From assembly GCA_047601445.1 (NCBI GenBank), contig JASGJH010000001.1, positions 1,696,001-1,760,000 of the forward strand: 64,000 nucleotides of DNA. The letters are read 5' to 3'. Below the pieces are notes generated by a model that ran no database searches, had not been told where the DNA came from, and saw only the letters and a program-made list of their open reading frames with translations. A program made the position numbers and the translations under genes. Positions 26,399-46,496 of the stretch are shown piece after piece (the first letter of the stretch is position 1; each line of letters begins with the position of its first letter). The DNA is from Myxococcales bacterium. GTDB lineage: Bacteria; Myxococcota_A; Polyangia; Polyangiales; DASUME01.

Positions 26399-26668
26399 CT
26401 GCGGTGCGATCCGACCGCGTGCCTGCGCACGAGCACGCTGCCGTCGGGCCCGCATGACGACCTAGCCCGGCCAACGTGACGGACCCAAGGTGACCTCACC
26501 GGGCTGCGGCTGGTCGTCGGCGTCCCCAGAGGGCCCTTATCAGCCCCCTCAGCCTGCTCGAATTGAGTCGGCTGGCACGGACGCGGGGGGTCGACGCTGG
26601 CCGATCCGGCGTCAGCCGGCTGGTCGGCAGGCCGAAAACAGAGCAGGATGGCCCCTTCATCGGGAGCT

Positions 26669-27784
26669 ATGACGCAGCACGACCGTGACCGGGCTTGGGC
26701 GGACTGGGCCATGCGCTTGATCGCGGCCGACTTCCGACGGTCGGCCGATACCAATCTGTTGCCGGTACACGTGCCGGGCTTCCCGGGCATCAAGCTCTAC
26801 CTCAAAGACGAATCGACCCACGTCACGGGTAGCCTGAAGCACCGCCTGGCGCGCGCACTCTTCCTCTACGCGCTGGCGAATGGGAACTTGCGTGAGGGCA
26901 CCCTGGTGGTCGAGGCGTCGTCTGGGAGCACGGCCATCTCGGAGGCTTACTTCGCCCGCCTGCTGAAGCTACCTTTCGTGGCGGTGATGCCCGCGGCGAC
27001 CTCCAAGGAGAAGGTGGCCATCATCGAGTCCTATGGGGCGCGCTGCCACCTGGTCGATGATCCCACAACGGTCTACGCGGTGGCCGCGCGGATCGCAGGC
27101 GAGGCACGTGGCCACTACATGGATCAGTTTACGTTCGCCGAGCGAGCCACCGATTGGCGCGGCAACAACAACATCGCCGAGAGCATTTTCCAGCAGATGT
27201 CCGAGGAGGAGCATCCCGTGCCACGCTGGCTCGTGGTGGGCGCGGGGACGGGCGGCACGGCGACCACGCTAGGGCGCTACATCCGTTACCGCAATTACGC
27301 CACGCAGCTGTGCGCGGTGGACCCCGAACACTCGGTCACCTTCGACTACTACCGCACGGGAAACGCCGCGCTGCAATCCGAGCGCTCTTCGGGCATCGAA
27401 GGCATCGGGCGCCCACGAGTCGAACCGTCCTTCGTGCGCACCGTGATCCACCGCATGATCAAAGTACCCGATGCGGCCTCCTACGCGGCAATGTTCTTCC
27501 TGGCCAAGCTGATCGGCAAACGCACGGGGCCTTCCACGGGAACGAACCTGTGGGCGGCCTTCGAGTTGATGTGCGAGATGGCCGCCGCGGGGGAGCAGGG
27601 GTCCGTCGTCACGTTGATCTGCGACTCGGGCGAGCGCTACTTGCAGACCTACTACAGCGACGTGTGGATGGCGCAGAAGAAGATCGACCTACGCGCATGG
27701 CGTCGCCAGCTCAAGTCGGCCTCCGAGACCGGCACCTGGGAGTCGCTCGTTCCTAGCGCAACCCTGGACGACCTTGAAAGGTGA
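26669..27784 (+). CDS. cds1: PLP-dependent L-cysteine desulfhydrase Cds1 (cysteine synthase-like family)
   Basis: [30 protein letters not shown] signature, [27 protein letters not shown] precedes ATG 26669. Confidence 0.8.
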
Positions 27785-27791
27785 GAGGGGC

Positions 27792-28163
27792 ATGGCGAAG
27801 ATCCTTCTGATTGAAGACAACGAAATGAACCGCGATATGCTCTCTCGCCGGCTAGTCCGCAGAGGGCACGAGGTCTCGCTGGCATTCGACGGACGACAGG
27901 GCCTCGACAAGGCGCAGCGCGAGCTCCCCGATCTCGTTCTGATGGACATTAGCCTCCCCGAGATCGATGGTTGGGAGGCAACCCGCCGCTTGCGCGCGAA
28001 TCCCACGACGGCGGGTATCCCGGTGATCGCACTGACGGCCCATGCCTTGGAGACCGATCGCGCGACGTCGCTGGAGGCGGGCTGCGACGACTACGACACC
28101 AAGCCCGTGGAGCTAGAGCGCCTGTTGGGCAAGATGGACGCGTTGCTCGCGCGCAAGCGCTGA
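27792..28163 (+). CDS. Single-domain response regulator (DivK-like)
   Basis: ILLIEDNEMN, LMDISLP (phospho-Asp), ALTAHA, GCDDYDTKP. Confidence 0.92.
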   Translation: MAKILLIEDNEMNRDMLSRRLVRRGHEVSLAFDGRQGLDKAQRELPDLVLMDISLPEIDGWEATRRLRANPTTAGIPVIALTAHALETDRATSLEAGCDDYDTKPVELERLLGKMDALLARKR

Positions 28164-28166
28164 CCG

Positions 28167-29375
28167 ATGCCGGGCCCTGCGGCATTTCTCGTGCAGATGC
28201 GCCACGAGCTGCGCAACCCGGTGAATGCCATCCTGGGCTACAGCCAGCTCTTGCTCGAGGAGGCTGATGGCGATGCGCTCGATGCCGAGGCGCGCCGCGA
28301 CATCTTGCGTATCGAGGACGCCGGTCGCCAGCTGCTGCGGGTGATCAACGAGATCCTCGATCCCGTGGGGTCCCTCGAGCAGGACGTCGCCGTGATCGGG
28401 GCACGCCTGCGCCATGCGGTACGCACCCCGGTGACGAGCGTGCAGGGATACGTCGAGATGATCCTCGAGCAGGAAAACGAGGACACTCCCCTTGCCAAAG
28501 ACCTGCTGCGGATTCACCAGGCCGCGGGCACGCTGGTCGAGCTGACCAACTCCATGGAGAGGCTGTACCTGTTGCGCACCGGCGCGAGCGCCAACATCGA
28601 ACCGGGCGAGAGCTCGGCCGAGGCCATCCAAGTGGCCAGCACGCTGGAGCAACTTCCCAAGGACACCACGCGCGCAGGACTCTTGCTGGTGATCGACGAC
28701 GAGGAGCCCAATCGCTCGCTGCTTCAGCGCAGGTTGGCCCTACAAGGGCACGACGTGTTGCTGGCCGCGAGTGGTGAGGAGGGACTCACGTTGGCCGAGA
28801 GTTACCCGGTGGACGTGATCCTGCTCGATATCATGATGCCCGGCCTCAACGGCTATGAAGTGCTCGCGCGCATCAAGGCGAGCGCACGTCTGCGCGAGAT
28901 CCCGGTGCTGATGACGACCGCGCTCGACGAACCTGCCAGCATCAGCGCCTGCCTCCAACTGGGTGCCGAGGACTACCTTGCCAAGCCGTTCGAGCCCGTC
29001 GTGCTGCGGGCACGTGTCTCGTCTTGCCTGGCGCGCAAACGTGCGCGCAGCTTCGAGCTCGACTACCTGCGCGGTGTCGCCGCGGTGACCTCGGCGGCGG
29101 TGGCCGTGGAGAGCGGTTCGTTCGATCCCGCCTCTTTGGATGAAGTCGGGCAGAGGCCCGACGCCCTGGGCAACCTGGCCCGACTCTTTCGGCGAGTTGG
29201 AGTCGAGGTCGCCGCGCGCGAGCGCCGTCTACGCGAACGCGTGGAGCAGCTGAAGATCGAGATCGATCACCACAAGAAGGCGACGCAGGTCGCCGAGATT
29301 ACCGAGTCGGACTACTTTCGTGGCCTGCGCGAGCAGGTGCGCGGACTCGCCGCGCGTCGGAAAGACCGCCCATGA
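28167..29375 (+). CDS. Signalling protein: two HisKA/DHp-like segments, REC, HAMP and a C-terminal coiled tail
   Basis: HELRNPVNAILGY and HAVRTPVTSVQGY; REC (IDDE, LLDIMMP, AKP); HAMP-like RPDALGNLARLF; tail EIDHHKKATQVAEITESDYF. No HATPase domain. Confidence 0.8.
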   Translation: MPGPAAFLVQMRHELRNPVNAILGYSQLLLEEADGDALDAEARRDILRIEDAGRQLLRVINEILDPVGSLEQDVAVIGARLRHAVRTPVTSVQGYVEMILEQENEDTPLAKDLLRIHQAAGTLVELTNSMERLYLLRTGASANIEPGESSAEAIQVASTLEQLPKDTTRAGLLLVIDDEEPNRSLLQRRLALQGHDVLLAASGEEGLTLAESYPVDVILLDIMMPGLNGYEVLARIKASARLREIPVLMTTALDEPASISACLQLGAEDYLAKPFEPVVLRARVSSCLARKRARSFELDYLRGVAAVTSAAVAVESGSFDPASLDEVGQRPDALGNLARLFRRVGVEVAARERRLRERVEQLKIEIDHHKKATQVAEITESDYFRGLREQVRGLAARRKDRP

Positions 29376-29423
29376 CTCAACGCGACCCCGCTAGCCCGCG
29401 TCAGGCCCGCATCAGGAGGTAGC

Positions 29424-30176
29424 ATGTCGAAGATCGTCTCCATCCACTCGTATCGGGGCGGCACCGGAAAGTCGAACCTCACGGCTAACCTGGCGGCAGC
29501 GCTCGCGGGCCTGGGCAAGCGCGTGGCCGTGGTCGACACGGACATTCAATCCCCTGGCATCCACATGTTGTTCGGGCTCTCGGACATGGACGAGCTCAAG
29601 ACGCTCAACGACTACCTCTGGGGACGCTGCGCCATCCGCGAGACTGCAGTCGACGTCACCCCTACCTCCCTCGATGGCACGGGGGGCAAGGTGTGGCTAG
29701 TCCCCTCGAGCCTCAAAGCTGGCGAGATCGCCAAGGTGCTGCGCGAGGGCTACGACGTCGGGCTACTCAACGATGGCTTCCGTGACCTGATGGACGAGCT
29801 CGAGCTCGATCACTTGCTGATCGACACGCACCCAGGGCTGAACGAGGAGACCTTGCTCTCGATTGCCATCTCCGACGAGCTCGTCGTCTTGCTGCGCCCA
29901 GATCGCCAGGATTTTCAGGGCACGGCGGTCACGGTGGAGGTCGCACGCAAGCTCGAGGTCACCCAGCTCGTGATGGTGCTCAACAAGGTACTGCCCAGCG
30001 TTCTCGAGCGCGGCTTCGTGGCAGAAGTCGAGCGTGCGTACGGAGCGCCCGTGATCGGCGTCTTGCCAGAGTCGAGCGAGATGCTGGAGCTTGGCAGCAG
30101 CGCCTTGTTCAGCCTGCGTTTTCCAGACCATCCGCTCAGCCGCGAGATGAGGCGGGTTGCGGCGCAACTAGTCTAG
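29424..30176 (+). CDS. MinD/ParA-family ATPase
   Basis: Deviant Walker A SYRGGTGKSN, DTDIQSPG, IDTHPG, VLNKV. AGGAGG RBS. Confidence 0.9.
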   Translation: MSKIVSIHSYRGGTGKSNLTANLAAALAGLGKRVAVVDTDIQSPGIHMLFGLSDMDELKTLNDYLWGRCAIRETAVDVTPTSLDGTGGKVWLVPSSLKAGEIAKVLREGYDVGLLNDGFRDLMDELELDHLLIDTHPGLNEETLLSIAISDELVVLLRPDRQDFQGTAVTVEVARKLEVTQLVMVLNKVLPSVLERGFVAEVERAYGAPVIGVLPESSEMLELGSSALFSLRFPDHPLSREMRRVAAQLV

Positions 30177-30179
30177 AGG

Positions 30180-31613
30180 TCAGCCGGGTTCGCTGCTTTC
30201 GGGTGCGGTCCGAGGTAGCGTCACCGTGAAGGTCGAGCCGACGCCCTGCGTGCTCTCGACGGTGATGTCGCCGCCCAGGATGCGACAGAGCTTGCGGCTG
30301 AGCGCGAGCCCGAGCCCCGTCCCGCCGTACTTGCTGCTGGTGCTGCTTTCGGCCTGCGTGAACTCCTGAAACAGCGAGCCGAGCTGGTCGGGCGTGATGC
30401 CGATGCCCGTGTCGCGCACCGCGAACTTCAAGAGCTTGCCGTCGGCTTCTGCCGAGACCGAGAGCGTGACCGTGCCGCGTTCGGTGAACTTCGCCGCGTT
30501 GGACATCAAGTTGAGGAGCACCTGCCGAACCTTGGTGACGTCCGTATGAAGTGCGCCGAGCTCTCCCTGGGTCTCCACGACGAGCTTGTTATCCTTCTTC
30601 TTGAACAAGGGCTCGGCCACGGACACCACAGCGGTCAGCATCGCCGTGACATCGACTTGCTCGGCAAAGATCGCCATTCGGCCCGCCTCGATCTTGCTCA
30701 GGTCGAGCACGTCGGTGATGAGCGCCAAGAGGTGTCGTCCGCTCGCGTTGATCTTCGACAGGTCCTCCGTGAAGGCTCCTTCGCCGCGCTCCGTGGCCTC
30801 TTCGTGCAGCATCTCGCTGTAGCCGATGATGGCGTTGAGCGGGGTGCGCAGCTCGTGGGACATGTTGGCCAGAAAGCGCGACTTGTGGCGGCTGGCCTCC
30901 GCGATCTCGAGGTTGCGTTGCTCGAGCTGGCTCAGCGCTTCGGACAACGCGCTGGTCGACACCTCCAGGCGCTGGTTGAGCGAAACTTGGGCGGCCTTCT
31001 CTGCGTCGAGCAGGGAGGCGTGGTAGCGGATGGCGGAATACACGATGGTGCCGACCGCGGCGATGTGGAACAGGAAGAAGAACCTGCGCGCGTTCTCGGG
31101 CAAGAACGGCGCGTGGCTCGCCAGCATGGGGTCGATGGCCGTGAACGCCAAGAGCGCGACCAAGAGCGCGACGAACCAGGGTAGCGATTGGCGCGCACCG
31201 TGGAAGAGGATGGCGACGAGCGGGGCCAGGAACGTCCACAGGATGAACCCGCTCGAGTTGGCAAAGCCCCCAAGAAAGAACTGCAACGCCAGGGGTCCCA
31301 GGAAGATGAGCAATGCCTGCTGGAAGCGAAACCGCGGGAAGTTGCGCGTGATCAGAAACACGATCGCACTCACGACCGTCAGTCCCTGATAAACGAGGGG
31401 CACCATCGCAGCGAGTGGCACGCCGAGCTTGTAGTAGGTCAAAGCCAGGGTCGGACAGGCCGGCGCCTTGGCTAGCGCGACGGTGAGGAGCAGGCGCTTC
31501 TTGCGCAACGCTGCATCGTCATCTCCCGGCGCCGCAACCACCGTGACCAGACGTTCCCACAACCGAGCTATGGCCCCCGGCGGGCTCGTCTCCGCGGTTG
31601 CTGCTGCCGACAT
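30180..31613 (-). CDS. Membrane sensor histidine kinase
   Basis: About six TM helices, then H box [11 protein letters not shown] box [19 protein letters not shown] and GTGLGL. Start placed at ATG 31613. Confidence 0.92.
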
Positions 31614-31679
31614 CCCAACCTCCCGAGTCGCCCGCAAGCTATCACAAAACAGCAGTACCCAAGGCCGCGGAGCACCTTC

Positions 31680-31695
31680 TGGCGTGCTTTCTGCA
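31680..31695 (+). promoter_or_regulatory. Candidate sigma54 (-24/-12) promoter
   Basis: TGGCGTGCTTTCTGCA has canonical GG-N10-GC spacing, followed by GGAGG and ATG 31719. Confidence 0.55.
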
Positions 31696-31718
31696 TCGCG
31701 CTCGGCTGGAGGGGCACG

Positions 31719-32099
31719 ATGAAATTGCACGTCCTGGCCGCGCTGGCCTTGTCCGCCCTGGCGTCCTGCGGCAGCGATGACCTCGGCACCGGCGTGGAGG
31801 AGCCCGACTGTCCAAAGGGCTCCACGCTCACCTACGCAGAGAACATCCAGCCCTTCATGGCGGAGTACTGCACCAGCTGTCACTCCGCTAGCGTGCCGGA
31901 ATCCCAGCGCGACGGGGCACCGACCAATCTGAACTTCGACACCGAAGCGGAGATCATCGCGAATACCACCGGAATCATCAAGCAAGCGGCGGCTGGTCCA
32001 GGCTTCAAGAACACCAAGATGCCCGAAGGAGACGGCCCCAAGCCGTCGAACGACGAGCGCAAGATGCTAGGCGAGTGGCTCGCCTGCCAAGCCGAATAG
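31719..32099 (+). CDS. Mono-heme c-type cytochrome lipoprotein
   Basis: Lipobox LASC, heme motif CTSCH, distal KMP (possible axial Met). Confidence 0.75.
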
Positions 32100-34093: not shown

Positions 34094-34711
34094 GTGATCG
34101 CCACGACTAGCGAGATCAGCGACGAGCGTTTGCGGCTTATCGAGGCCGTGTCCAAGCACTGCGACCTGCGCGAGCGACTCGCCTTGGTCCCGCCTTCCGC
34201 CAAGGTCCGCGGGCTCTACTTCGGCAGCATCGAGGCCGTGCTTGGGCGCGCGGGTAAGGCACAGAAATACAAGGGGCTTTTCCCTGAGCGGTTCGCCGCA
34301 GTGAGTTGGCATCCGGCGGGCGAGTTCCTGACGCGCCTCGCGGTGGGGGGAGCACTCCTCATGTCTCCCGAGCGTGTGCACGAAGGCATGTACGAGATCG
34401 GCCGGCGCAACGCCGCGGCGTTCACCGAGAGCTTGCTCGGACGTACGTTGCTCCGCTTCCTCTCGCGCGACCCGAAGAAGCTCTTGCAGCAGGCCAACGC
34501 CGGACGGCGCCAAAGCACCAATTTCGCGCGCTGGGATATCAGCTTTCCCGACCAGCACACAGCGATCGTCGAGATGGCGGAAGAGTACCAGTGGATTGAA
34601 TCGAACGCGCTCGGCGCCGCCGTCGGTACCTTCGAGGCAGTAGGAATTCCCATGAAAGCCGAGGTTGAGCTGACCAGCCGCTTTGTGGGGCGTCACATCC
34701 TGCGCTGGTAG
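34094..34711 (+). CDS. DUF2378 / TIGR02265 myxobacterial family protein
   Basis: KVRGLYF, IGRRNAAAFTESLLGR and C-terminal ...LRW pattern typical of this family. Confidence 0.75.
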   Translation: MIATTSEISDERLRLIEAVSKHCDLRERLALVPPSAKVRGLYFGSIEAVLGRAGKAQKYKGLFPERFAAVSWHPAGEFLTRLAVGGALLMSPERVHEGMYEIGRRNAAAFTESLLGRTLLRFLSRDPKKLLQQANAGRRQSTNFARWDISFPDQHTAIVEMAEEYQWIESNALGAAVGTFEAVGIPMKAEVELTSRFVGRHILRW

Positions 34712-34876
34712 CGCAAGCTTGTTATCGTCAAATGCAAGGGTTATTGCGCTTTTGGTCGGGAAGAATTGCACGTTTGAAAACGTACGCCCCCCTCCCGCGG
34801 CTGGTTCGGCATCAACGCTTACAGTCCCAGTAAGGTAACATCCCGAAGTGGGGTGTAGTGTGGGCAATTCGGCGCT

Positions 34877-34892
34877 CGGCATCGAACGTGCT
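34877..34892 (+). promoter_or_regulatory. Candidate sigma54 promoter of the ThDP/KAS III operon
   Basis: CGGCATCGAACGTGCT with GG-N10-GC spacing, 57 nt before ATG 34950 and downstream of an AT-rich tract. Confidence 0.4.
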
Positions 34893-34949
34893 TAGCGCCG
34901 AAACCGCAGGCGTCTGCCCCCCGGCGAGAGGCCTGCGTGAGGAAGTTCC

Positions 34950-36767
34950 ATGCACCCAGTGCGAGACGAGCGCGCGGCTTCAAGCCGTCGACGCACCCCT
35001 TTGCTTCGTGAAGCCCCCGACGCTGCTCCCCGTACCGCGAGCCCCACTGAGTCAACACTGGCAGAAGGCGCTGCCGCACGACGGCTAGTAGCGGCCCTGC
35101 TCGCGCGCGGTGTCGACACCTTCTTCGGGATCCCGGGCGGCCCCGTATGTCCCGTATTCGACGCGATCCGGATGACGCCAGGCGCGCACCTCGTCGAGTC
35201 ACGGCACGAAAGTCACGCCGCCTTCGCAGCATCACTCTATGCACGCGCGAGTGGACGCGTGCCGGCGTTGGTGGTCACCGCAGGACCGGGGGTCACGCAC
35301 GCTGTGACGGGCATCGCCTCGGCGAGTCTCGAGCGCACTCCCATGCTGGTCATCGCTGGTGACGTGGCTTGGGCAACCACGGGTGCACGCACGGCGCAGG
35401 ACTCGGGCCCGGAGGGCATCGCTATCGAGACGATGCTCGCACCGATCACCCGCGTGCAGATCCGCGCCGCGCATTCACGCAGCGTGGTGAGCCAGGCGCT
35501 CGCAGCGCTCGACATTGCGTCGGATCCGCTGTTTCCAGGGCCCGCCCTGTTCGTGCTGCCGCTCGACCGCGGCATGGGCGAGTGCGGCATGTTCGAGGTG
35601 ACCCCGAAAGCCGCGCGCTACGAAGTGCCGGCTCCCGAGGCCGCAGTGGAGCAGACGGCGGCTTGGCTGTCCGAGGCGACGCGACCTTTGCTCGTCATCG
35701 GCGCTGGCTGCCGGGGCAACGAAGAAGCGATACGCGAGCTCGTCGACGCCCTCGACGTACCCTTCGTCACCACACCGCGCGCGAAGGGCCTCGTCAGCGA
35801 GCGCCATCCTCGCTCTCTACGCAACGGCGGCATGGCGGCTTCGCTCTGGGCACGTCGCTACACGGCTGAGCCCGTCGATGTGTGCGTGGCGCTCGGGACG
35901 GACCTCGACGACACATCGGTAGGCCCCACGCGCTATCTCGGCGCGGAGGGCAAGCTCGTGCACGTGGACCTCGACGCGCGCGTCTTCGGCCGGAACTTGC
36001 CGACGGCGCTCGCCGTGACCGCCGACGTGGCTGCCTTCGCGCGCGCACTTTGTCGCCGCGTCGACGGCGCACCGATCGGTACGATGAGCGCACGCACCGC
36101 CCTGCACGAAGCGCGCTGTGTGCCGCCGTTCGACGTAGCCGACCCCTCGCGCGACGATGCAGCACCGATTCGTCCGCACCGAGCCATCGCCGACCTCGAA
36201 GCCGCCATGCCTGCGGGCACCCGCTACGTGACCGACATCGGCGAGCACATGTTGTTCGGGCTGCACTACTTGACCGCGTCGGCCCCGGACTCGTTCTACA
36301 TGCAGCTGAATCTCGGCAGCATGGGCTCGGGCATCGCGGGCGCCATCGGCCTCGCGCTCGCGGATCGCGAGCGCCCGGTCGCATGCATCGCGGGCGATGG
36401 CGGCATGCAAATGTCCGGCATGGAGGCGCTCGTCGCGGTACGCGAGCGCTTGCCCATCCTGTTCGTCGTGTTCAACGACGCTCGCTACAACATGGTGCAT
36501 CACGGCATGCGCCAGATCTTCGGCGCAGCGCACACCTACGATATGCCTCAGATCGACTTTACGACCTGGGCGAGCTCGTTCGGGATGCCGGCTGCGAAGA
36601 TCACCAAGCCCGCCGAGCTATCGCCAGCGCTCGTCTGGCGCCTGCTCGCGTCGGGGGGCCCGGCGCTGCTCGACGTGCGCATCGATGCGAGCGTACGGAT
36701 CCGCGGTGGCGGGCGCGTCGAAGCCCTACAACACATGTCGATGCTCTCGCAAAGCAAGCAAGGATAG
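34950..36767 (+). CDS. Thiamine diphosphate-dependent enzyme (acetolactate synthase-like, candidate acyloin synthase)
   Basis: FGIPGG, SRHE (catalytic Glu), TAGPG, GSMGSG and the GDGG...NDARY ThDP/Mg motif. Confidence 0.9.
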   Translation: MHPVRDERAASSRRRTPLLREAPDAAPRTASPTESTLAEGAAARRLVAALLARGVDTFFGIPGGPVCPVFDAIRMTPGAHLVESRHESHAAFAASLYARASGRVPALVVTAGPGVTHAVTGIASASLERTPMLVIAGDVAWATTGARTAQDSGPEGIAIETMLAPITRVQIRAAHSRSVVSQALAALDIASDPLFPGPALFVLPLDRGMGECGMFEVTPKAARYEVPAPEAAVEQTAAWLSEATRPLLVIGAGCRGNEEAIRELVDALDVPFVTTPRAKGLVSERHPRSLRNGGMAASLWARRYTAEPVDVCVALGTDLDDTSVGPTRYLGAEGKLVHVDLDARVFGRNLPTALAVTADVAAFARALCRRVDGAPIGTMSARTALHEARCVPPFDVADPSRDDAAPIRPHRAIADLEAAMPAGTRYVTDIGEHMLFGLHYLTASAPDSFYMQLNLGSMGSGIAGAIGLALADRERPVACIAGDGGMQMSGMEALVAVRERLPILFVVFNDARYNMVHHGMRQIFGAAHTYDMPQIDFTTWASSFGMPAAKITKPAELSPALVWRLLASGGPALLDVRIDASVRIRGGGRVEALQHMSMLSQSKQG

Positions 36768-36774
36768 GAAGACC

Positions 36775-37854
36775 ATGAAAGTTGCATCGGTCACAGGGCT
36801 CGGCACTTGGCTGCCCGAGGCGATTCGCACCAACGACGCTTGGCCTGAAAGCTTCGCCAAGCGCGATCACGTGAAGGGGGATCGCACCTTCAACGATATT
36901 CCCGCCTCTCTCGATCCCCGAGGTGCCGCACTGGTCGAGCACGAGCTCGCGCGCGAAGCGAGCGACCCGTTTCTGGGAGCGAAGCTGAGGCACGTGGCCG
37001 ACGCTGAGACCTCGACGCTCGACGGCGAGACCATCGCGGCACAGCGCGCGCTCGAGGACGCCGCAGTCGACCCGAAAGACGTTGATCTCGTGCTCACGTT
37101 TTCAGCCGTCCCAGATCGCATTTCGCCGCCGAGCGCGGGCGGAATTGCCGATCGTCTGGGGGCGCACAATGCGCGTGGCATCGGCATGGATGCGGCCTGC
37201 GCCAGCGGAGTCGTCCAGCTCGAGATGGCTCGCGCGTTCATCGGCACCGGCATGGCCAAGGTGGTCCTGCTCGTACACTCGCACCTGATGCTGCGCGCCA
37301 TGCCCATGACGCACCCGGCCAGCCCAGGTCTCGGTGACGCCGCAAGCGCCATTGTCGTCACCGCCGGCGAGTCCGGCCTCGTCCTGCGCAGCACCTACGT
37401 GCGCACCCACGGCGAGTACAGGCAGGCCGTGTGCTGGGTCCGAGGTGTCGACGACGATACCGACATTCCGTGGTGGAAAGCCGGCGGCGAATTTCGCCCC
37501 GGGAGCCGCCAGCCAGAGGCCGTCAAAGCCCTGATGCGAGACACGGTGAGCTACGGGTCGGCCACGCTGCGTGAAGCGGCCCACGCCATCGGCACCGACC
37601 TGGAGCGCGTCTCGGTCCTCGCCTGCGTGCAGCCTCGCGGGTTCCTGCCGGGCGCCATCGCGGAGCACGCCGGTCTTCGGCGCGAGTGCGCCGTGACCAC
37701 CTACGAACGCATCGCTCACGTGGGCTCGTGCGGTCCGGTGTTCAACCTACTCGAGAGTCGACGCCAGGGCCGACTCAACAGGGGCGACCTGGTTGGGCTG
37801 TACGGACAAGGCGCCGGCTTCACACGCGCCGCAGCCCTGCTCGAAATGGTCTAA
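36775..37854 (+). CDS. KAS III/FabH-fold enzyme with atypical active site
   Basis: TGLGTWLP, DAACASG (catalytic Cys), GDAASA, YGQGAGF. Starts 7 nt after the ThDP gene with an AGGA RBS. Confidence 0.85.
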   Translation: MKVASVTGLGTWLPEAIRTNDAWPESFAKRDHVKGDRTFNDIPASLDPRGAALVEHELAREASDPFLGAKLRHVADAETSTLDGETIAAQRALEDAAVDPKDVDLVLTFSAVPDRISPPSAGGIADRLGAHNARGIGMDAACASGVVQLEMARAFIGTGMAKVVLLVHSHLMLRAMPMTHPASPGLGDAASAIVVTAGESGLVLRSTYVRTHGEYRQAVCWVRGVDDDTDIPWWKAGGEFRPGSRQPEAVKALMRDTVSYGSATLREAAHAIGTDLERVSVLACVQPRGFLPGAIAEHAGLRRECAVTTYERIAHVGSCGPVFNLLESRRQGRLNRGDLVGLYGQGAGFTRAAALLEMV

Positions 37855-37897
37855 AAAAAACTTTGGACTACGCGCCGCGGCCGTAGACACTCCCCTG

Positions 37898-39541
37898 ATG
37901 GGAGCGAATCGGACACTCGTGCTGGTGAGGAGCGAAGAGGCTCTCCAGATCCTGCTCGGAATGGTCGAACAGCTGCCTGGGGTGCGCGGTCGCGCCTTCG
38001 AGTTCGACATCCTGCGGGGTGAACCCAGCCAGGCCATGTCCGAGCGCCGCGAGCAAGAGGGGAACATCCCCATCGGCGTGATCGCCGAGGATGAGCCGAC
38101 CGCCTTGGCAGCTCTGTCCGGGGGCGCCGACGAGGCCCTCGTGCTGCCCGAGCTCAGCACGGCGAGCGTGGTGACCTTTATCGATCGCACCGAATTTCGC
38201 GCGGGCCTGCGGGTCGAAACCCATCGCCTGCACGAGCGCTTCGCGCACACCGAGAAGCTGACCGCCCTGGGCACCTTGGTCGCAGGCGTCGGCCACGAAA
38301 TCAACAACCCACTCTCCGCCGTGCTCCTGCTACTCGAGGCTGGACGCCGTGAAATCCTGCCCGCGATGCAAACGGCCTGGGAAGTGGTGCGCTTGCTCGA
38401 GCAGGGAGAGCGCGTACCCGAGTCTCTCGTGCGAAGCCTGAGCGCGCGCCTGAAGCCAACACGAGATGGCGTCGAGCCCACGCGCATTTTCGACGAGATT
38501 GGCTCCGCCTCCGACGCCATCGCCGGCATCGTGCGCGACCTGCGCGTCTTCGCGCGCACGGACGAGGAAGAGGCGCTCGAACTCGTCACCGTGCCCGACC
38601 TGATGGATCACACCATTCGGCTACTCGGCCGCGATCTTTTCAAGCGTTGCCTGATCGAGCGCGACTACGCATCCAACCTGCCCAGCCTGGTGATTCCCCG
38701 CAATCGGGTGACGCAGGTGCTCATGAACGTGCTCGTGAACGCGACCCATGCCATCAGCGAAGTCGAGCGCCCGATGCACCGCGTGAGCATCAGCGCGCGT
38801 GCCGACGAGGAGTTCGTAGCCATCGCCATCAGCGACACGGGGGTGGGCATCCCGCCCAAGTCCCTCGAGCGCATCTTCGACCCATTCTTCACGACCAAAC
38901 GCAAGGAGATGGGCACGGGTCTCGGGCTCTCCATCTCGCGTTCCATCGTACGGAGGCTAGGCGGCGAGTTGTCCGTCGAATCCGTATACGGAGAGGGCGC
39001 GACGTTCATTTGCTTCTTGCCCATCCCCACGCGCGACATGCTGCGGAGCGCCTTCAAGCGCACCGTCATCAGGGCTCGCGACACCTCCGCTTCATCCAGC
39101 ATGCGCGTCCTCGTGGTCGAGGATGACGTGCAGCTCCTGCGCTCCTATGCACGACTCCTGGGCGCGAGCCACCGCATGATCGTCGCCCACGATGGCCGCG
39201 AAGCCGTGGATCTGCTCGAGTCCGGCTCTGGGGCGGACATCGCGCTGTTGGAGCTCGACTTACTCGACATCGGAGACGGCTCGCTGCTCGACTGGCTGCA
39301 GACCCATCGACCGGAGCTCGCGCGCCGCACGGTGCTGGTGACCTCCATGGGATCCGCGCCCGAGCATGCAGAGCTCCTGCACCAGTACCCGGGCAAAGTG
39401 CTGCACAAGCCGATGCGGGGCGAGATCGTGCTCGAGACCATTGCGCGCCTCGCGAACCCGAGCCAGCCGCCCCCGGTACGAGAACGGTCGCCGACTGGCG
39501 AGGAGCGCGTCGCCGAAGAGCGCGTCGCCGAGGAACGCTGA
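37898..39541 (+). CDS. Soluble hybrid histidine kinase (degenerate REC - HisKA - HATPase - pseudo-REC)
   Basis: EKLTALGTLVAGVGHEINNPL, DTGVG, FDPFFTTK, GTGLGL. C-terminal REC has VEDD...LLELDL...HKP. Confidence 0.88.
   Translation: MGANRTLVLVRSEEALQILLGMVEQLPGVRGRAFEFDILRGEPSQAMSERREQEGNIPIGVIAEDEPTALAALSGGADEALVLPELSTASVVTFIDRTEFRAGLRVETHRLHERFAHTEKLTALGTLVAGVGHEINNPLSAVLLLLEAGRREILPAMQTAWEVVRLLEQGERVPESLVRSLSARLKPTRDGVEPTRIFDEIGSASDAIAGIVRDLRVFARTDEEEALELVTVPDLMDHTIRLLGRDLFKRCLIERDYASNLPSLVIPRNRVTQVLMNVLVNATHAISEVERPMHRVSISARADEEFVAIAISDTGVGIPPKSLERIFDPFFTTKRKEMGTGLGLSISRSIVRRLGGELSVESVYGEGATFICFLPIPTRDMLRSAFKRTVIRARDTSASSSMRVLVVEDDVQLLRSYARLLGASHRMIVAHDGREAVDLLESGSGADIALLELDLLDIGDGSLLDWLQTHRPELARRTVLVTSMGSAPEHAELLHQYPGKVLHKPMRGEIVLETIARLANPSQPPPVRERSPTGEERVAEERVAEER
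39500..39538 (+). repeat. 15-bp in-frame tandem repeat (EERVA x2.6) at the kinase C-terminus
   Basis: GAGGAGCGCGTCGCC GAAGAGCGCGTCGCC GAGGAACGC. Confidence 0.7.
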
Positions 39542-40457: not shown

Positions 40458-41999
40458 TTAGTGCAGGTCCGTGACGCACGTGGTGTCCGCGGGATCGCAC
40501 TCCACCAGGCCGAATCCGAACTCGGCGGGCGCGGTGCCACCCGTGCCCTGGCTGGCGTCCACGACGAAATAGTGATCGCCGGCCGCGACTTCCAGCTGCA
40601 ACAGAGCGAAGTGCGAGCTCGCGCAGTGATCCAGACCGCCGATGAAGTGGTGCACGTAGCTGCTCGCCGAGCTGCCATTGCGGTCGAAGACGAACGCGCG
40701 CAGCTTGGTGGCCTTGGTCGCGGTGTACTTGTAGATGCGCTCGCCAGCGCTCTCGTTCTTGCCAGGGCCTTCGCCGTTGAACCCAGCGGGGCTCGGGCAC
40801 GCCGAGTACGAGGACCTATTGCCACTCGCCGCAAACTCACGCAGATCCGAAAAAGGGAGACTCCGCGCGAAGTAAGGGGTCGTTTCCGTTCCTTCCCCTT
40901 CGAGGGTCGACCCATCCGCATCCGGCACGGCCGCGCTGTCGAGCAGGACGGTCTTTGCACGGTGCATCTGCTCCACGACGCTGCGATTCATCACGTTGTC
41001 GCCGAACGCGAGGGCCGGAACCGAGAAGTCGCATGGATTGCCCATGTAGTCCGCGAGATGGGCACCGTCGCTCCAGTAGCCCTCAGCGCCGAGCTTCTGA
41101 TACTCGGGGTACGGATCCGCAAATGGCACTTGCCGCCCCTGGGCCACGGCGCGCGAGAGCGCATTCACCAGGGAAAAGAGCATGTTCGGCTGGGGGCGCC
41201 CGTAGTACGGCGGTGCCGAGCGCAGCAAGGGAATCGTGCCATGGGCGATCAGCGTATCGACGATTTCGAGCATGGGTGCACCCACGTTCTCCACGATCAA
41301 GTAGTCGTCGGCGTTGGGATCTCCGGCTCCTGCATGCCCAATCGGCCCGAAACTCACGAGCGCAAACGCCGGATGCGCCAGCTCGATCTGCTGCTGCAAC
41401 CACGAGCTACCGCCGCTGCCGTCGATGACGGACCGCGGTACGAAGCTCTCCATGTCGACCGTGTAGGCAAACGGACTCACCCCCTGGATGCTGCCCCCGA
41501 GAAAGTACTGGAGCGTCGGTTCTGCGGAGACCGTGGCACCCAGCACAGGAGTCTCGCCTGACTTGGGGTCGAAACACCCGAGCAGGTGCGACGCATGCGA
41601 GAGGTTGTCGCCCACGCGAATGAAGTTCTTTCGATTGGTGTCGCTTCCCTTCGCAAGAATGCTTCGCAGCGTCTGCGCCACCGATGGCGTCAGGGGCGAG
41701 TGGCGAAGGTCGCCTGGATAGAGGACGGGCCTATCCCCGGCGCGCGGCCCACTGCCCCCGTCCTGTCCGTTCCCTGCGCCACTATCGGCATCGGCTGCAT
41801 CGTGGTCCGTGTCAGAGCCGGCGTCGCGCTGCATGCCTCCGTCGCGCTCTGAGCCAGCGTCCCCGCCCGACCCGCGATCAGCATGCTGGACAGTGCACGC
41901 GACGAGCAGCCCAGAACCGAAGGCCAGCGCTGCCCACCTACCCTGGACGACCACCAGCTTCTTGCGAGCGCGCTCTCCGTTGTCTCGATTCTGCAGCAT
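40458..41999 (-). CDS. SGNH/GDSL-like lipoprotein with degenerate block I
   Basis: Lipobox LVAC, Asp/Gly linker, RVGDNLS (GDS expected), DGAHL (DxxH), C-terminal beta domain. Confidence 0.6.
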   Translation of the reverse strand: MLQNRDNGERARKKLVVVQGRWAALAFGSGLLVACTVQHADRGSGGDAGSERDGGMQRDAGSDTDHDAADADSGAGNGQDGGSGPRAGDRPVLYPGDLRHSPLTPSVAQTLRSILAKGSDTNRKNFIRVGDNLSHASHLLGCFDPKSGETPVLGATVSAEPTLQYFLGGSIQGVSPFAYTVDMESFVPRSVIDGSGGSSWLQQQIELAHPAFALVSFGPIGHAGAGDPNADDYLIVENVGAPMLEIVDTLIAHGTIPLLRSAPPYYGRPQPNMLFSLVNALSRAVAQGRQVPFADPYPEYQKLGAEGYWSDGAHLADYMGNPCDFSVPALAFGDNVMNRSVVEQMHRAKTVLLDSAAVPDADGSTLEGEGTETTPYFARSLPFSDLREFAASGNRSSYSACPSPAGFNGEGPGKNESAGERIYKYTATKATKLRAFVFDRNGSSASSYVHHFIGGLDHCASSHFALLQLEVAAGDHYFVVDASQGTGGTAPAEFGFGLVECDPADTTCVTDLH

Positions 42000-42010
42000 T
42001 CGATCAACCC

Positions 42011-43534
42011 TCAGCCGAGCAGGGAAGAAATCCCCTGCGTGAATTCCGTATGCCCGCAGGTGCCATAGCTCTCGAGATTTTCGCCAAACAGGTTGGCGAT
42101 CGCGACCAGCACCGGATTGTGCGAGGTGAGCGTTGCCCCCTCGCAGTAGTCTTGGACCTGGGGGGTGCGCGCGGGAGCGACGATGCGCTTTCCTAGTTTG
42201 ACCTTACCGTTGGTACCACCGGCCAAGATCATGGGCACCTGGACGGTGCTGTGGGCGGAGCCCTGACCGCCGTCGCTGCCAGCGAAAACTACGGTGCTGT
42301 CCAGGATCCCCGCTTCGTCCAGTCGCTGCATGAACTTGGCGATGCGCATGAAGTACATACGATTGATGCCCGCGACGATGCGCTGGCTGAACAGTGCGTC
42401 GTCGCTGCTCCCATCCTGCAGACGGTGCGCGCCGTCATCGTGGATGTTGTGGTAGAGCGGGAGAGCCCAGTCCTGGGTGCCGTCTTCCACCTGAATGTTT
42501 TGTCCGGTCCAGCGGCTCGTCACGGTCCGTCCGTCCGGCACCGGCCCCAGATCATTGGGCATCAGAAACGTGGCGAACCGGGTGAGGTCGCACACGACCG
42601 CCTCCGCCAGCATGTCCATTTGGAGCTGCCAGGTCGGAACGATGTTACCCGGCGTGAACTTGTCTTCGATGTAGCCGCTGCTGGCCGGCACCGGACGCGC
42701 AGGTGGACTGCATTGCGCGCTGACCTGGATATCGTTCAAGCGCTTCTCGAGCCCACGCACCACCGTCAGATGCTGGTCCAGCTTCTCTTTCTCGGCGCCC
42801 GCCAGTCTCCCGTTCAGGCGTTGAATATCTTTCACCACGAAGTCGAGCACGCTGGCACCGATGGCGCGTTTGCGGGCGGCCGCCGCCTGGGCCGCAGGAT
42901 CGGTGCCCACGATCGCGCCTGCGAACACCTTGTCCCAGAGCTGAAGCGGCGTCTCCAGCGGCGCTAGCGGCGTGCCCCCGGTATCGAAGGAAAGACACCA
43001 GCCCGACTCGAGGGGGAAGGCAAACTGATCGAAGCCACGGATCTGCAGCGAACGAAACCGGGTGTCGTTCCCGTACTTGGCCGCCAAGTACTGATCGATG
43101 GAGGCGTTGAGGAGGCCGTTCGTTCCCTTGCAGCTGCCGGTCATCAGCAAACCCATGGCGCCATGCATGGGCACGTGCATGCTCGCGCCGCTCTGGTCGT
43201 ACTCACCGACTCCAAAGTCGAACCCCTCGAAGATGTCGATGCGGTCTTTGAAGGAGCGGCCGTAGGTGGTGGCGTCGTCGAAGGGCGTGAACGGAGACTC
43301 AGGGTAAGTCAGGGAAAACGAGGTCGAGGTATCGCCTGGCTGCCGTGCCCAAAACCGCTGGGCGGTGCCATGGAAGAAGCCAAAGCCGACGAACTTCAAG
43401 GGCAGCTGCCCCGTTTGGGCGAGCACGAAGTTGTTTTCCAACAGTTTGTAGAACGGCAAGAGCACGGCCGACGCACCCAACGCCTTCAGGAACGATCGAC
43501 GCGAAGCAAGGGCGCTACGAGATGGCTCGCTCAT
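42011..43534 (-). CDS. DUF1552 family protein with Tat signal
   Basis: SRRSFLK twin-arginine motif, SIDQYLA, SVLDFV, KLDQHL, CDLTRFAT, ILDST, P.ILAGG. Confidence 0.85.
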   Translation of the reverse strand: MSEPSRSALASRRSFLKALGASAVLLPFYKLLENNFVLAQTGQLPLKFVGFGFFHGTAQRFWARQPGDTSTSFSLTYPESPFTPFDDATTYGRSFKDRIDIFEGFDFGVGEYDQSGASMHVPMHGAMGLLMTGSCKGTNGLLNASIDQYLAAKYGNDTRFRSLQIRGFDQFAFPLESGWCLSFDTGGTPLAPLETPLQLWDKVFAGAIVGTDPAAQAAAARKRAIGASVLDFVVKDIQRLNGRLAGAEKEKLDQHLTVVRGLEKRLNDIQVSAQCSPPARPVPASSGYIEDKFTPGNIVPTWQLQMDMLAEAVVCDLTRFATFLMPNDLGPVPDGRTVTSRWTGQNIQVEDGTQDWALPLYHNIHDDGAHRLQDGSSDDALFSQRIVAGINRMYFMRIAKFMQRLDEAGILDSTVVFAGSDGGQGSAHSTVQVPMILAGGTNGKVKLGKRIVAPARTPQVQDYCEGATLTSHNPVLVAIANLFGENLESYGTCGHTEFTQGISSLLG

Positions 43535-45181
43535 TTTGCACTCCGCGTGGCGAATGTGTCGCTCTGAACGAACGCGCCGAACATGGCGAGGATGTCGTCA
43601 TGCTTCTCGACGGGAAGCGCGTCCCATGCGGCCAGGAACGCTTGCTCCGCCTCTGGTGCCGAGGTCGTTGCTGCAAAACGGAACACGTTGCGAGCAAAAC
43701 AGCGACGAACGTCCACGCTCTCACTGAGTAGCTCCACGAACGCACGCCCGTCCGTGTAGGGCCCCTTCACGTCCGTGCTGTTCAGCATGCCCGAGGCATC
43801 GATCGTCTTTCCGTTCTCGGTCGCGCGAAACTGGCCTGCCTGGTCGAAATTCTCGAACGCGAAGCCGAGCGGGTCAATTTGCGAATGGCAGCCCTTGCAG
43901 GCCGCATTGGTCGAGTGACTCGCGAAGCGCTCGCGCGTGGTCTGATTGGGCGTGGGTTCCGGGATCATCATGGCGGTCTTGGCGAGATCTCCGGTGGGGA
44001 AGGAGATCTCCTGGCACAGAAGGCGTCGCAGGACGGTGGCTCCGCGCTTGACCGGGGAGCTGTGATCTCGACTCGCGTGCCCCGCGAGGAACGCCCCCTG
44101 CATCAAGATGCCGCGCCGCGCAGTCGAATCGAGAGATGTCTCGACATAGTCGCTCGCGCTCGCCCCTGAGAGGCCGTAGAAGTCTGCCAGCGCAGCGTTG
44201 GCCATGGTGGAAATTGGCCGACAGCAACGTCTTGAAGGAGCTCCCGTCGCCAAACACCACCGCGCTGACGAACTCGGCGGTCTCCTGCTCGAACTCCGAC
44301 CTCAGCAGATTGAAGTCGAGCCCCTCCACCAACGGAACCGCCTGCGCCAGTTGGTCGATTCCGAGCCACTCTTTGACAAAGCGCTGCATCTGAGTGCGCG
44401 CCCGTGGGTCGGACTGGATCAAGCGCGTGAAGTGCGCGAGGCGCTCGGTGCCCGAGCCGAGCTCATCGGCGGCAGCGGCTGCGAGCAACTCCTGATCCGG
44501 AGGGGCACCGATCACGAAGTACGACAGAGCCGAGGCGAGTTCGTAGGGCTCGAGGTCGCGAGTGGATCCGTCGGCTCCACCGAGCTGTGGAATGTAGAGA
44601 AACGAAGCCGACTGCAACACGGCTTGGATGACAGCTTGCACGCCATCGTTGAAGGTACCGCCCGTCGCTGCCACGTTGAAAACGGCGAGAAGATCCGCTT
44701 CTTCCTCGCTGCTCGTGGGACGACGGAACGCCTTCTCGGCAAAACTCTTCACGAACTGCTTGGCACAGCTGTCGCCAGCCGTCGCCGAACATGGCAGAAG
44801 CCTGCCTAGCTTCCCGGCCACCGCCTGAGCCGCCAAGCCCTCTGCACTCAGCCGCAACTGATCGCCGCGGGTCTCGTCTACGCGCTGTGCCATGGACGAC
44901 GTGAACCATGCGTTGCGCACGTCCGGGGCAAAGGTAGTCACCGCGTTCGCGTTCAGGTCCAGGAGATCTTTGATGGACGCGTCGTACTCTGCATTGGTGA
45001 GTTTGCGCAGACCGGCGGGCAGGAGACTGGCAGTGCTTGAATCAAGGCTACCGCCGTCGGCAATCGCCCCTTCGCTGGGGCCTGCGGGAGCGCTCAGGAC
45101 GCCGTCACAGGCGGAAGGCGCCACGAGGACCGCGCAGCACAAAGCCGCGGTGCGAAGTACATGCGGGATGGTTCGCTGCAT
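43531..45181 (-). pseudogene. DUF1587/1595/1592/1588/1585 (PSD/PSCyt) lipoprotein, frameshifted as assembled
   Basis: LRKLTNAEY, AFRRP, LEPYELASALSYF, RRGIL, SSPVKRG, CKGCH..IDPLGFAFENFD. Removing one G at 44209-44210 restores LLSANFTMANAALADFYG and a 549-aa ORF. Confidence 0.85.
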
Positions 45182-45509
45182 TGGAGTTTCGTGTTGGGGG
45201 TCGAAAGACCGCCTGAAAACAAGCTCTCACGCTACCGAGGCACGTCTGCGCGCGCAAGAGAGGCACACCCCAAACGAAGACGTGGGCGCTGCCGAACCCA
45301 GCCGAGTGGCTGGTGCGCTGCGATGGCAGATCGAATCAGTACCCCGTGGGCACCGAACCGGCTCAACAGGCCACCTTACTTACTTACCGGCTCGCTCCGG
45401 GGCCGCTGTCATCACGGTGCCCACTCGAGCTGGAGCTTCCGGGGAAACACTGACCCGAGCAGGCGTTCTGGCGCCACCCGCCCATGCGACATACCCTTCA
45501 CCCCGTCCG

Positions 45510-46496
45510 ATGCCCTCCCAGCCTGATCCCGCGACGGTCGACACGAGCCACATCCATGCTCTCGAAGAAGCTCTGACGAACTGCGGAGTGAGCGAGGGCC
45601 AGCGCCAGGTCGCCCTCAAGGCAGCCGGCGCAAAGCGAGCAGGCTTTTGGCAGCGAGCGCTCCAGGCACAGGCTCCCCTCTTGGCCAAAGTCACGGGCGA
45701 CTCGGCCCTGGGACTGCGCATGGGGTGCGCGATGCCAAAAGGTGCAGGGGGCGCGGTGGAGTACCTCCTGTGCACGGCGCCTTCCTTTCGCAGGGCGCAC
45801 GTCCTGTATGAGCGTTTCAGGCCGCTCGTTGGCGACTCCCTGCGTCACGAAGCGCGCGAAGAGCACGGCTACGCCTGCCTCGAACTCGTGCCTCTACCGA
45901 ACGCGCCCCTCGATCGCGTGATTGAGGACTTCCGCTTGGCACGCATGTGGACGTTTGCGCGCCGTCAGCTCGGCCCGGAGGTCACCCCATCCCAGGTCTG
46001 CTTCACCTATCGGCGCCCCAAGGACCTGGCGCCCTACGAGCGCGCTTTCGGCCGGGCGTCCTTCGAGTTCGCCCAACCACGGGCCGGCATCCGCGTGCCT
46101 CAGCAGCTTGCCGACCAGCCCCTCGAAGGCAGCGCCCCCCTTCTACACGCCATCGTGCTGGAGCACGCCGAGCGGCTCCTCGCCCACCACCGAGAACCGC
46201 AAACCGTGGCCACCCAGGTGCGCGCGATTCTCGGTGAGGTCTTGCACGAGGGGCGGCCCGAGATCGCCGACGTGGCGCGTCAACTTGGTCTGGGCGAACG
46301 AACGCTGCGCCGCCGCCTGGCGGCGGAAGGCACGAACTACGCGGAGCTGCTCGACGGCGTGCGACTTTCTCTCTCGCAGGTGTTCGCCGACACGCCCGTT
46401 CGCGATCAGCAGCCCTTGGCTTTCCGCCTGGGGTTCGAGAGTGCCAGCGCATTGCGGCGAGCACGCAAGCGCTGGGCAGCACAGAGTCCCACCTAG
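45510..46496 (+). CDS. AraC-family regulator (Arabinose_bd_2-type N-domain)
   Basis: TGDSALGLRMG, IADVARQLGLGERTLRRRLAAEG, LGFESASALRRA. Divergent from the DUF1592 operon. Confidence 0.88.
   Translation: MPSQPDPATVDTSHIHALEEALTNCGVSEGQRQVALKAAGAKRAGFWQRALQAQAPLLAKVTGDSALGLRMGCAMPKGAGGAVEYLLCTAPSFRRAHVLYERFRPLVGDSLRHEAREEHGYACLELVPLPNAPLDRVIEDFRLARMWTFARRQLGPEVTPSQVCFTYRRPKDLAPYERAFGRASFEFAQPRAGIRVPQQLADQPLEGSAPLLHAIVLEHAERLLAHHREPQTVATQVRAILGEVLHEGRPEIADVARQLGLGERTLRRRLAAEGTNYAELLDGVRLSLSQVFADTPVRDQQPLAFRLGFESASALRRARKRWAAQSPT

Follow-up and report, generated by a model that had tools for sequence, protein, structure and literature searches.

Several bacterial systems both make and sense a small molecule, among them LuxI/LuxR, CqsA/CqsS and LqsA/LqsS, and in these the synthase and the receptor are inherited together while receptor-only derivatives, such as the LuxR solos, also occur. 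The Cqs and Lqs systems use hydroxyketones as signals and kinases in the response, and their synthases are pyridoxal phosphate (PLP) enzymes. We describe here a four-gene cassette of different chemistry that may follow the same logic. It lies in a window of 64,000 nucleotides from a Myxococcales bacterium (positions 1696001-1760000 of contig G000:C1; the genome, of 9.5 Mb and 66% GC, is a single contig) and encodes, all on the + strand, a DUF2378 protein (34094..34711), a thiamine diphosphate (ThDP)-dependent carboligase (34950..36767), an enzyme resembling beta-ketoacyl-acyl carrier protein (ACP) synthase III (KAS III; 36775..37854) and a histidine kinase (37898..39541). The labels of homologues and the range over which DUF2378 occurs place the genome in Myxococcota, probably in Polyangiales.

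The closest described enzyme pairs are of two kinds. CybE and CybF are the core synthases of the furanolides, such as cyanobacterin, nostoclide and maculalactone (PMC8777810, PMC12395478, PMC13288894), which are antibacterial or algicidal (PMC12395478); a stand-alone pair of ThDP and KAS III genes, without the lyase and ligase, is reported from the myxobacteria Plesiocystis and Enhygromyxa (PMC8777810). Nostoclides, a related product class, are described as density-dependent mediators in Nostoc (PMC9324945). In the synthesis of carbazole precursors by NzsH and NzsJ (CqsB3 and CqsB1), a ThDP acyloin-type step is followed by a KAS III-like step on the beta-keto acid with an acyl-coenzyme A (CoA) or ACP partner, and such pathways can require a third small protein, the cyclase or carrier NzsI/CqsB2 (PMC7466098). 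On the sensory side, H-NOX genes usually adjoin the kinases that they regulate, as in SO2144/SO2145 of Shewanella oneidensis and VCA0720/VCA0719 of Vibrio cholerae, and clusters of H-NOX proteins lacking the histidine also exist, section 10 of the same paper posing what they sense as an open question (PMC8738867).

The cassette resembles each of these in part. As with CybE/CybF, a ThDP carboligase gene directly precedes a KAS III-like one whose length is similar, and the same two enzyme types are paired in NzsH/NzsJ, but the cassette has neither the cinnamate supply genes of the former clusters nor the NzsI-type cyclase, ACP or second KAS III of the latter, and it has a candidate receptor and a kinase attached. 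The Plesiocystis pair also lacks the ammonia lyase and CoA ligase, so their absence here leaves a butenolide product possible. Like the H-NOX/kinase pairs, the cassette encodes a stand-alone protein of about 190 residues in its predicted H-NOX-like fold beside a soluble kinase; unlike H-NOX, the DUF2378 protein has no proximal histidine and no YxSxR motif, carries an extra N-terminal helical arm of about 35 residues, and is tied to a biosynthetic enzyme pair, a setting absent from the neighbourhood list of PMC8738867. Finally, the co-inheritance of a synthase with a candidate receptor, and the existence of orphan receptors, recall the autoinducer systems, although the ThDP and KAS III chemistry and a separate cytoplasmic receptor of H-NOX fold, in place of a membrane sensor domain or transcription factor, set the cassette apart from Lux, Cqs and Lqs. 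As the Cqs and Lqs synthases are PLP enzymes, comparison with them is an analogy only.

Our preferred reading, held with modest confidence, is that the cassette comprises a synthase, a soluble receptor and a kinase that make and sense a small diffusible molecule, its orphan receptors resembling LuxR solos. In the open full-text literature, subscription papers lying outside the scope of the search, we found neither the cassette described nor DUF2378 treated as a sensor linked to a kinase. A minimal pathway of two enzymes is not new, a stand-alone pair having been published for Plesiocystis (PMC8777810); what is new is that a receptor and a kinase are attached. Likewise, synthase and receptor with solos is a logic of a known kind, and it is the combination of parts that is new.

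Linkage, co-inheritance and orphan pairs

The distribution of the genes was surveyed in 401 genomes of the order (Polyangiales by database labels), and 81 loci anchored on the KAS III gene were fetched from related genomes. Matches were found to the KAS in 64 genomes, to DUF2378 in 70 and to the N-terminal region of the kinase in 45. KAS and DUF2378 occur together in 55 of the 401 against about 11 expected, a comparison to be read with the non-independence of kin in mind; the tally includes one unpublished genome, G122, counted only in these figures. At the anchored loci the ThDP gene is present in 78 of the 81, DUF2378 in 51, the cognate kinase in 47 and all four genes in 45, rising to 30 of the 36 loci that are both close and well flanked (KAS at least 40% identical, both flanks longer than 4.5 kb). 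Seven gene arrangements are found, divergent and convergent ones included. Because a random 9-kb window of this genome contains a DUF2378 gene in only 0.3% of cases and some histidine kinase in about 12%, whereas 45 of 81 loci are complete, the grouping of the four genes is far beyond chance. A search of genome contigs with a single KAS gave one locus from 177 pattern matches.

A sequence-only reading of the window, which had staked its proposal on a conserved link to the kinase, is upheld on that point by these figures. DUF2378 is present in every one of the 45 genomes that carry the cognate kinase. Counted against the best 57 of 79 DUF2378 places, 43 of the 47 places of this kinase have a DUF2378 gene within 5 kb; of the other four, three fall on contigs that are short or broken, and the last is an orphan. 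Conversely, a kinase-family gene accompanies DUF2378 at 50 of the 51 loci that bear it (a short kinase-like gene at five of them), the remaining locus being truncated.

Trees of the four genes were compared over 42 complete loci (41 fetched plus that of the window, with truncated or frameshifted loci and L080 omitted). They are congruent, with 19-26 of 22-29 supported splits in common and distance correlations of 0.85-0.94, the DUF2378 and KAS trees correlating at r 0.94. One genome, G058, has two cassettes whose DUF2378 proteins fall in different clades, each matching the motif type of its own KAS.

DUF2378 was also found at 20 further loci, among them ten DUF2378-kinase pairs without enzymes, two truncated cassettes and two variants with a citryl-CoA-lyase-like gene. 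The ten enzyme-less pairs nest at several points inside the cassette trees. At one of them (L106:4560-7159, genome G370) the DUF2378 gene is followed by a frameshifted 3' remnant of the KAS gene and then by the kinase. Its DUF2378 and its kinase each group as sister to their counterparts in the intact cassette L044, and the locus looks like enzyme loss caught in progress. Six genomes (G006, G007, G104, G109, G197 and G275) have a DUF2378-kinase pair and no KAS match at E 1e-40; they are 73-98% complete, four of them 93-98%. The genome studied here also has such a pair (L102, G000:C1:1216822-1219071), in which a second DUF2378 protein, 56% identical to the first, is directly followed by a kinase paralogue (53%) with no enzymes. 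DUF2378 and kinase are thus the tightest unit of the cassette. The orphan pairs fit a ligand that can arrive from outside, and they do not by themselves make that ligand the cassette product. In the two citryl-CoA-lyase-like variants (L118:2941-7322 and L119:2788-7174) DUF2378 comes first, followed by the ThDP gene, a 304-aa gene product matching PDB entry 6hxp (E 1.8e-7) in place of the KAS III, and a short kinase.

Other arrangements were seen in the survey. A third DUF2378 copy in the genome (53% identical; G000:C1:3450062-3450646, L103:4579-7153) has directly downstream of it the gene for another hybrid kinase, one that is membrane-bound and of 7TM type. At L077-L080 and L091 next to the ThDP-KAS pair comes a short gene that resembles a kinase and lacks the C-terminal receiver, and then a convergent DUF2378 gene, of which L078 carries two copies. 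At L083, L085 and L087-L090, mostly from outside the order, distant KAS homologues are followed by a different hybrid kinase of about 1000 residues with two HATPase domains; four of these six loci have a ThDP gene and two have P450 genes, and they are possibly a parallel make-and-sense system. ThDP-KAS genes stand beside large STAND/NB-ARC/WD40 proteins at L034, L084 and L086 in myxobacteria and at the cyanobacterial plasmid loci L124 and L139. In a single case (L055:3140-4969) a close ThDP-KAS pair without DUF2378 or kinase has a divergent XylR_N/V4R sigma-54 activator, the sensor of which belongs to the same fold superfamily as DUF2378.

The putative receptor and its kinase

The proposed receptor is a soluble protein of 205 aa which matches PF09536 and TIGR02265 above cut-off. 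PF09536 is its only Pfam match, and PF07700 (HNOB) has no match in this genome. A search with its sequence profile found no solved relative, giving only chance matches to TrpB (E 0.8-1.4), and the ESM Atlas yielded clusters of DUF2378 proteins, clusters without a name and a single chemoreceptor domain. The structure model is confident (predicted local distance difference test score, pLDDT, of 95), and its leading Foldseek matches are all H-NOX or soluble guanylate cyclase structures (E 6e-6, template modelling score about 0.6). With VIA-align it superposes on the H-NOX of S. oneidensis (4u99) with Z 15.5 and a root-mean-square deviation of 2.6 over 162 aa; further down the list, at Z 8-10, come VirS (Z 10), TRAPP, BcsD and PoxR/DmpR (Z 8), of which VirS and PoxR/DmpR sense small molecules. 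Pfam may already group DUF2378 with H-NOX-like folds, so that the fold alone may not be new.

DUF2378 is predicted to have the H-NOX fold without the haem-binding residues. At most positions between 130 and 145, where the proximal haem histidine would approximately lie, none of 44 DUF2378 sequences has a histidine, the highest count being 6 of 44, at 140 and 144; four true H-NOX proteins from relatives all retain His104. The YxSxR haem-propionate motif is absent, its place being taken by M161-A-E-E-Y165, with a consensus there of EEYxW, and Gly174 aligns with a conserved C-terminal glycine of H-NOX. R28, R39, G40, G98, E164 and G199 are invariant, while His22/Cys23 and His96 are partly conserved. 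The single paper found to name DUF2378, available as preprint and journal article, gives the family no known function and records that HHQ, a quinolone of Pseudomonas, raised expression of a DUF2378 gene in two myxobacteria (PMC9257966). The suggestion, made from the DNA alone, that DUF2378 might be a ligand-binding partner of the kinase gains some ground from the predicted fold, which is that of a ligand sensor whose known members regulate adjacent soluble kinases.

The kinase (547 aa) consists, by Pfam matches and the predicted model, of a pseudo-receiver, HisKA, HATPase and receiver domains. It is soluble, the highest hydropathy over 19 residues being 1.2, with no transmembrane helix. In an alignment of 37 of the 46 extracted kinases with that of the window, the H, N, D and G boxes are intact, H133, N281, D313, G315, G317 and the G-box glycines being invariant in 38 of 38. 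The first 100 residues or so (37898..38197) have no Pfam match at E 0.5. They are predicted to form alternating beta and alpha elements, in which a GADE motif is conserved and a phosphorylatable aspartate is not, and the best fold match of the kinase model is LvrB, a REC-kinase. Being a degenerate receiver by this model, the N-terminal domain offers no dedicated ligand-sensing domain, yet it is a possible docking site, and we regard it as a candidate docking or input site. The kinase had been described at first as lacking any sensor domain, which holds in so far as ligand sensing is concerned but overlooks this N-terminal region.

The C-terminal receiver (39107..39433) matches PF00072 with 25.3 bits against a cut-off of 30.2. 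Its phosphoacceptor position is a glutamate, Glu452, as in 28 of the 38 homologues, an aspartate being present in the other 10. Given this substitution, phosphate output is likely to go to a response regulator encoded elsewhere. The term hybrid kinase, originally applied to the protein, is consequently apt for its intact catalytic boxes and less so for its receiver.

The enzyme pair and the surrounding genes

The ThDP enzyme (605 aa, TPP_N/M/C domains) was compared with acetohydroxyacid synthase (AHAS), the acetolactate-forming enzyme of branched-chain amino acid synthesis. It scores 259 bits against a cut-off of 538 for the biosynthetic AHAS family (TIGR00118, acolac_lg), 191 against 551 for TIGR02418, and 183 against 1000 for a ScyA-related NCBIfam model; the IlvB of the same genome scores 755 and is encoded elsewhere, adjoining an AHAS small subunit. 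The IlvB motifs HEQ, AFQE, DDRI, GQHQMW and VRQWQ, which we take to be the substrate-site motifs of AHAS, align with HES, TAQD, DDTS, GEHMLF and VHHGM in the ThDP enzyme, and these replacements are largely conserved over 42 cassettes, in all 42 of which the catalytic Glu87 is invariant. The nearest PDB sequences are CsmA (8x3z, E 2e-69) and BbmA (8x3x, E 1e-65), both ahead of every AHAS. According to their PDB titles and one sentence in PMC12395478, these are CybE homologues that make alpha-hydroxy-beta-keto acids. Searched against plasmids, the ThDP enzyme had no match at E 1e-50. Hence the ThDP enzyme is, as judged from these comparisons, distinct from the acetolactate synthase of the cell, as the sequence-only reading had needed it to be, and nearest to the CsmA/BbmA hydroxy-keto-acid synthases. 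It is a candidate acyloin synthase joining two 2-oxo acids, although its substrates are not readable from an alignment in which identity to CsmA and BbmA is only about a third.

The KAS III-like enzyme (359 aa, ACP_syn_III domains), a candidate acyltransferase or condensing enzyme, is similarly atypical. It scores 91 against a fabH family cut-off of 292, two genes above that cut-off lying elsewhere in the genome, and has an N-terminal insertion of about 40 aa. A start at 36397, giving 485 aa, was considered and rejected, since the longer ORF would run through part of the ThDP gene in another reading frame and the usual length among homologues is about 360 aa. Aligned with the FabH of the genome, the enzyme keeps the cysteine as Cys142 and has Val285 for the histidine and His315 for the asparagine, that is, Cys-Val-His instead of the Cys-His-Asn triad. 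Cys142 is present in all 42 complete four-gene cassettes; the second site, that of the FabH asparagine, is a histidine at 52 of 61 tabulated loci, and the first retains a histidine at only four of the 61, none of them with DUF2378. A CerJ-type His...Asp motif is not present after His315. The His/Asn pair of FabH supports malonyl decarboxylation. Its loss points to transfer of an acyl group onto a non-malonyl acceptor, as described for the KAS III-like enzymes CybF (PMC8777810) and NzsJ/CqsB1 (PMC7466098).

When plasmids were searched for a genuine Cyb-type cluster, the KAS III genes that came up were all distant ones, situated in salicylate loci of the nonribosomal peptide synthetase/polyketide synthase type, in ACP-linked loci and in two cyanobacterial ThDP-KAS pairs. 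In the last, the KAS is 21-23% identical and has asparagine at the position of His315.

With gaps of 7 nt and 43 nt between them, the ThDP, KAS III and kinase genes have the look of a single operon. Transcription of DUF2378 may be separate from theirs, and the 238-nt spacer that follows it (34712..34949; 58% GC against 66% for the locus) is likely to be the promoter region for the other three. A promoter and terminator scan of the spacer remained at chance level, with no sigma-70 consensus and a weak hairpin (34701-34715) within chance, and no common motif was seen by eye in the spacers of related cassettes. The co-directional order and the two short gaps had been noted from the outset and are confirmed by ORF coordinates together with Pfam and NCBIfam matches. 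So too is the lack of neighbouring ilvN/ilvC, ACP, ammonia lyase and CoA ligase genes, none of which appears in a Pfam scan of the 20 ORFs at 23.4-48.4 kb. An upstream glyoxalase-family gene and a downstream ORF at 39804 were considered as cassette members and rejected, neither having a tblastn match in any fetched locus. Among 519 neighbouring ORFs (45 loci plus the window) there is no recurrent fifth gene: neighbours form one 15-locus chain of generic signalling domains, as judged from sequence starts, and otherwise lineage-limited clusters of at most six loci.

Further away in the window, the region 26648-31985 encodes, by Pfam, a PLP enzyme, a stand-alone receiver, a HisKA-receiver protein, a ParA/MinD-like ATPase and an opposite-strand membrane kinase; these signalling genes show no sign of synteny shared with related cassettes. 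At 44892-46496, 5 kb downstream, is an ORF for an AraC regulator with an N-terminal Arabinose_bd domain (PF12625), a family which we take to share the VirS-type sensor fold. On the - strand, 40458-45181 encodes an unannotated 513-aa protein and a pair of genes, DUF1552 (HXXSHH) with DUF1592/1595/1587, of a kind typical for planctomycetes and myxobacteria.

Possible roles of the cassette

For the preferred reading, a make-and-sense circuit, we infer every chemical and binding step as follows. The ThDP enzyme would join two 2-oxo acids to an acyloin; the KAS III, charged at Cys142 with the acyl group of a housekeeping acyl-CoA, would pass that group to the acyloin. An ester of the acyloin, a C-acylated compound or, if a ring then closes, a small butenolide would result. 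The product would occupy the DUF2378 cavity equivalent to the haem cavity of H-NOX, and the receptor, bound or free, would contact the kinase and alter autophosphorylation of His133, by analogy with H-NOX/kinase pairs. Phosphate would then move to a response regulator encoded elsewhere, the receiver of the kinase itself having mostly glutamate for aspartate.

Several observations weigh against this. Six of the 36 close, well-flanked loci are ThDP-KAS pairs without DUF2378 or kinase, and among well-flanked distant loci the complete set is present at only six of 25, so that the enzymes often work without this receptor; at the eight loci from outside the order, the fetched flanks contain no DUF2378. 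On the receptor side, six of the 20 further DUF2378 loci are without cognate kinase, and the short kinase-like gene adjacent at five loci is degenerate in the two that were read out. The profile-profile match of DUF2378 to H-NOX is weak (probability 2%, E 0.024), and the residue mapping given above therefore rests on the fold, its register being approximate. No conserved response regulator or exporter is found among the 519 neighbouring ORFs. Host-family labels change 14-16 times on the trees, where the minimum is 8 and shuffled labels give about 26, so that host descent explains part of the congruence, the rest being probably due to transfer or duplication of the whole unit. Lastly, nostoclides are reported not to autoinduce their own cluster (PMC9324945).

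The strongest alternative, which we consider unlikely while taking it seriously, is that DUF2378 and kinase form a cluster-situated regulator responding to an outside cue, such as a prey or host compound, a lipid or redox state, the enzyme product being a weapon or effector and not the ligand. The response of a DUF2378 gene to HHQ (PMC9257966) and the antibacterial or algicidal activity of furanolides (PMC12395478) would suit this, ThDP-KAS pairs do occur beside unrelated regulators and P450s, and enzyme-less pairs would remain useful as general sensors. It accords less well with the lack of any conserved exporter, resistance gene or transcription factor among the 519 neighbouring ORFs and with the close agreement of DUF2378 and KAS trees, which is what would be expected if ligand and synthase change together. 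A kinase without a cognate DNA-binding regulator would be odd for pathway-specific control.

A circuit confined to one cell appears improbable. It would be a second-messenger or metabolic-state circuit, in which the enzymes translate pools of acyl-CoA and 2-oxo acids, or a trigger from infection, into a messenger that the same cell reads. All four proteins are cytoplasmic with no linked exporter, distant ThDP-KAS pairs adjoin the STAND/NB-ARC/WD40 proteins mentioned above, and messenger systems that combine an enzyme with a V4R domain have been proposed for conflict loci (bioRxiv 10.64898/2026.10.19.760177). Yet no toxic effector is linked, and receptor-kinase pairs persist in genomes that gave no KAS match, of which four have a completeness of 93% or more, and an external ligand is the better fit to this.

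Still less probable is a role for DUF2378 as a third biosynthetic protein, a cyclase or carrier comparable to NzsI/CqsB2, or as a non-canonical haem or gas sensor, with the kinase link secondary. The known need of some ThDP and KAS III pathways for such a protein (PMC7466098) and the existence of H-NOX clusters without the histidine (PMC8738867, section 10) give these ideas a basis, as do the invariant charged residues R28, R39 and E164 and the partly conserved His22/Cys23 and His96. However, DUF2378 tracks the kinase and not the enzymes, as seen in the ten enzyme-less pairs and in the 27 of 78 ThDP-KAS loci, some of them truncated, that have no DUF2378 nearby; a haem sensor, for its part, is hard to square with the missing YxSxR motif and the lack of a conserved histidine on the helix from which H-NOX proteins ligate haem. 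That primary-metabolism paralogues, an acetolactate synthase and a FabH, simply lie beside one of many kinases (the genome has about 127 HATPase-bearing matches) is very improbable and largely refuted by enzyme scores below family cut-offs, by the presence elsewhere of the true AHAS, with small subunit, and FabH, and by a kinase lineage that stays with the cassette through rearrangements.

To our knowledge, myxobacteria, though highly social, have few diffusible signals tied to both a synthase and a receptor, and the make-and-sense reading would give them a complete candidate circuit in four soluble proteins. The cassette bears on three questions: the role of DUF2378, the ligands of H-NOX-fold proteins lacking the histidine, and the products of minimal ThDP and KAS III pairs. 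More tentatively, and with rather more doubt than belief, it may represent a new class of cell-to-cell signalling in one myxobacterial order, with a ThDP and KAS III autoinducer synthase, an H-NOX fold turned from the sensing of haem or gas to that of an organic signal as its receptor, a soluble kinase, clade-specific dialects founded on differing KAS active sites and on the citryl-CoA-lyase-like replacement, and receptor-only eavesdroppers that evolved repeatedly. If true, this would assign a function to the myxobacterial DUF2378 family, and the enzyme-less pairs would offer a built-in means to probe eavesdropping between lineages.

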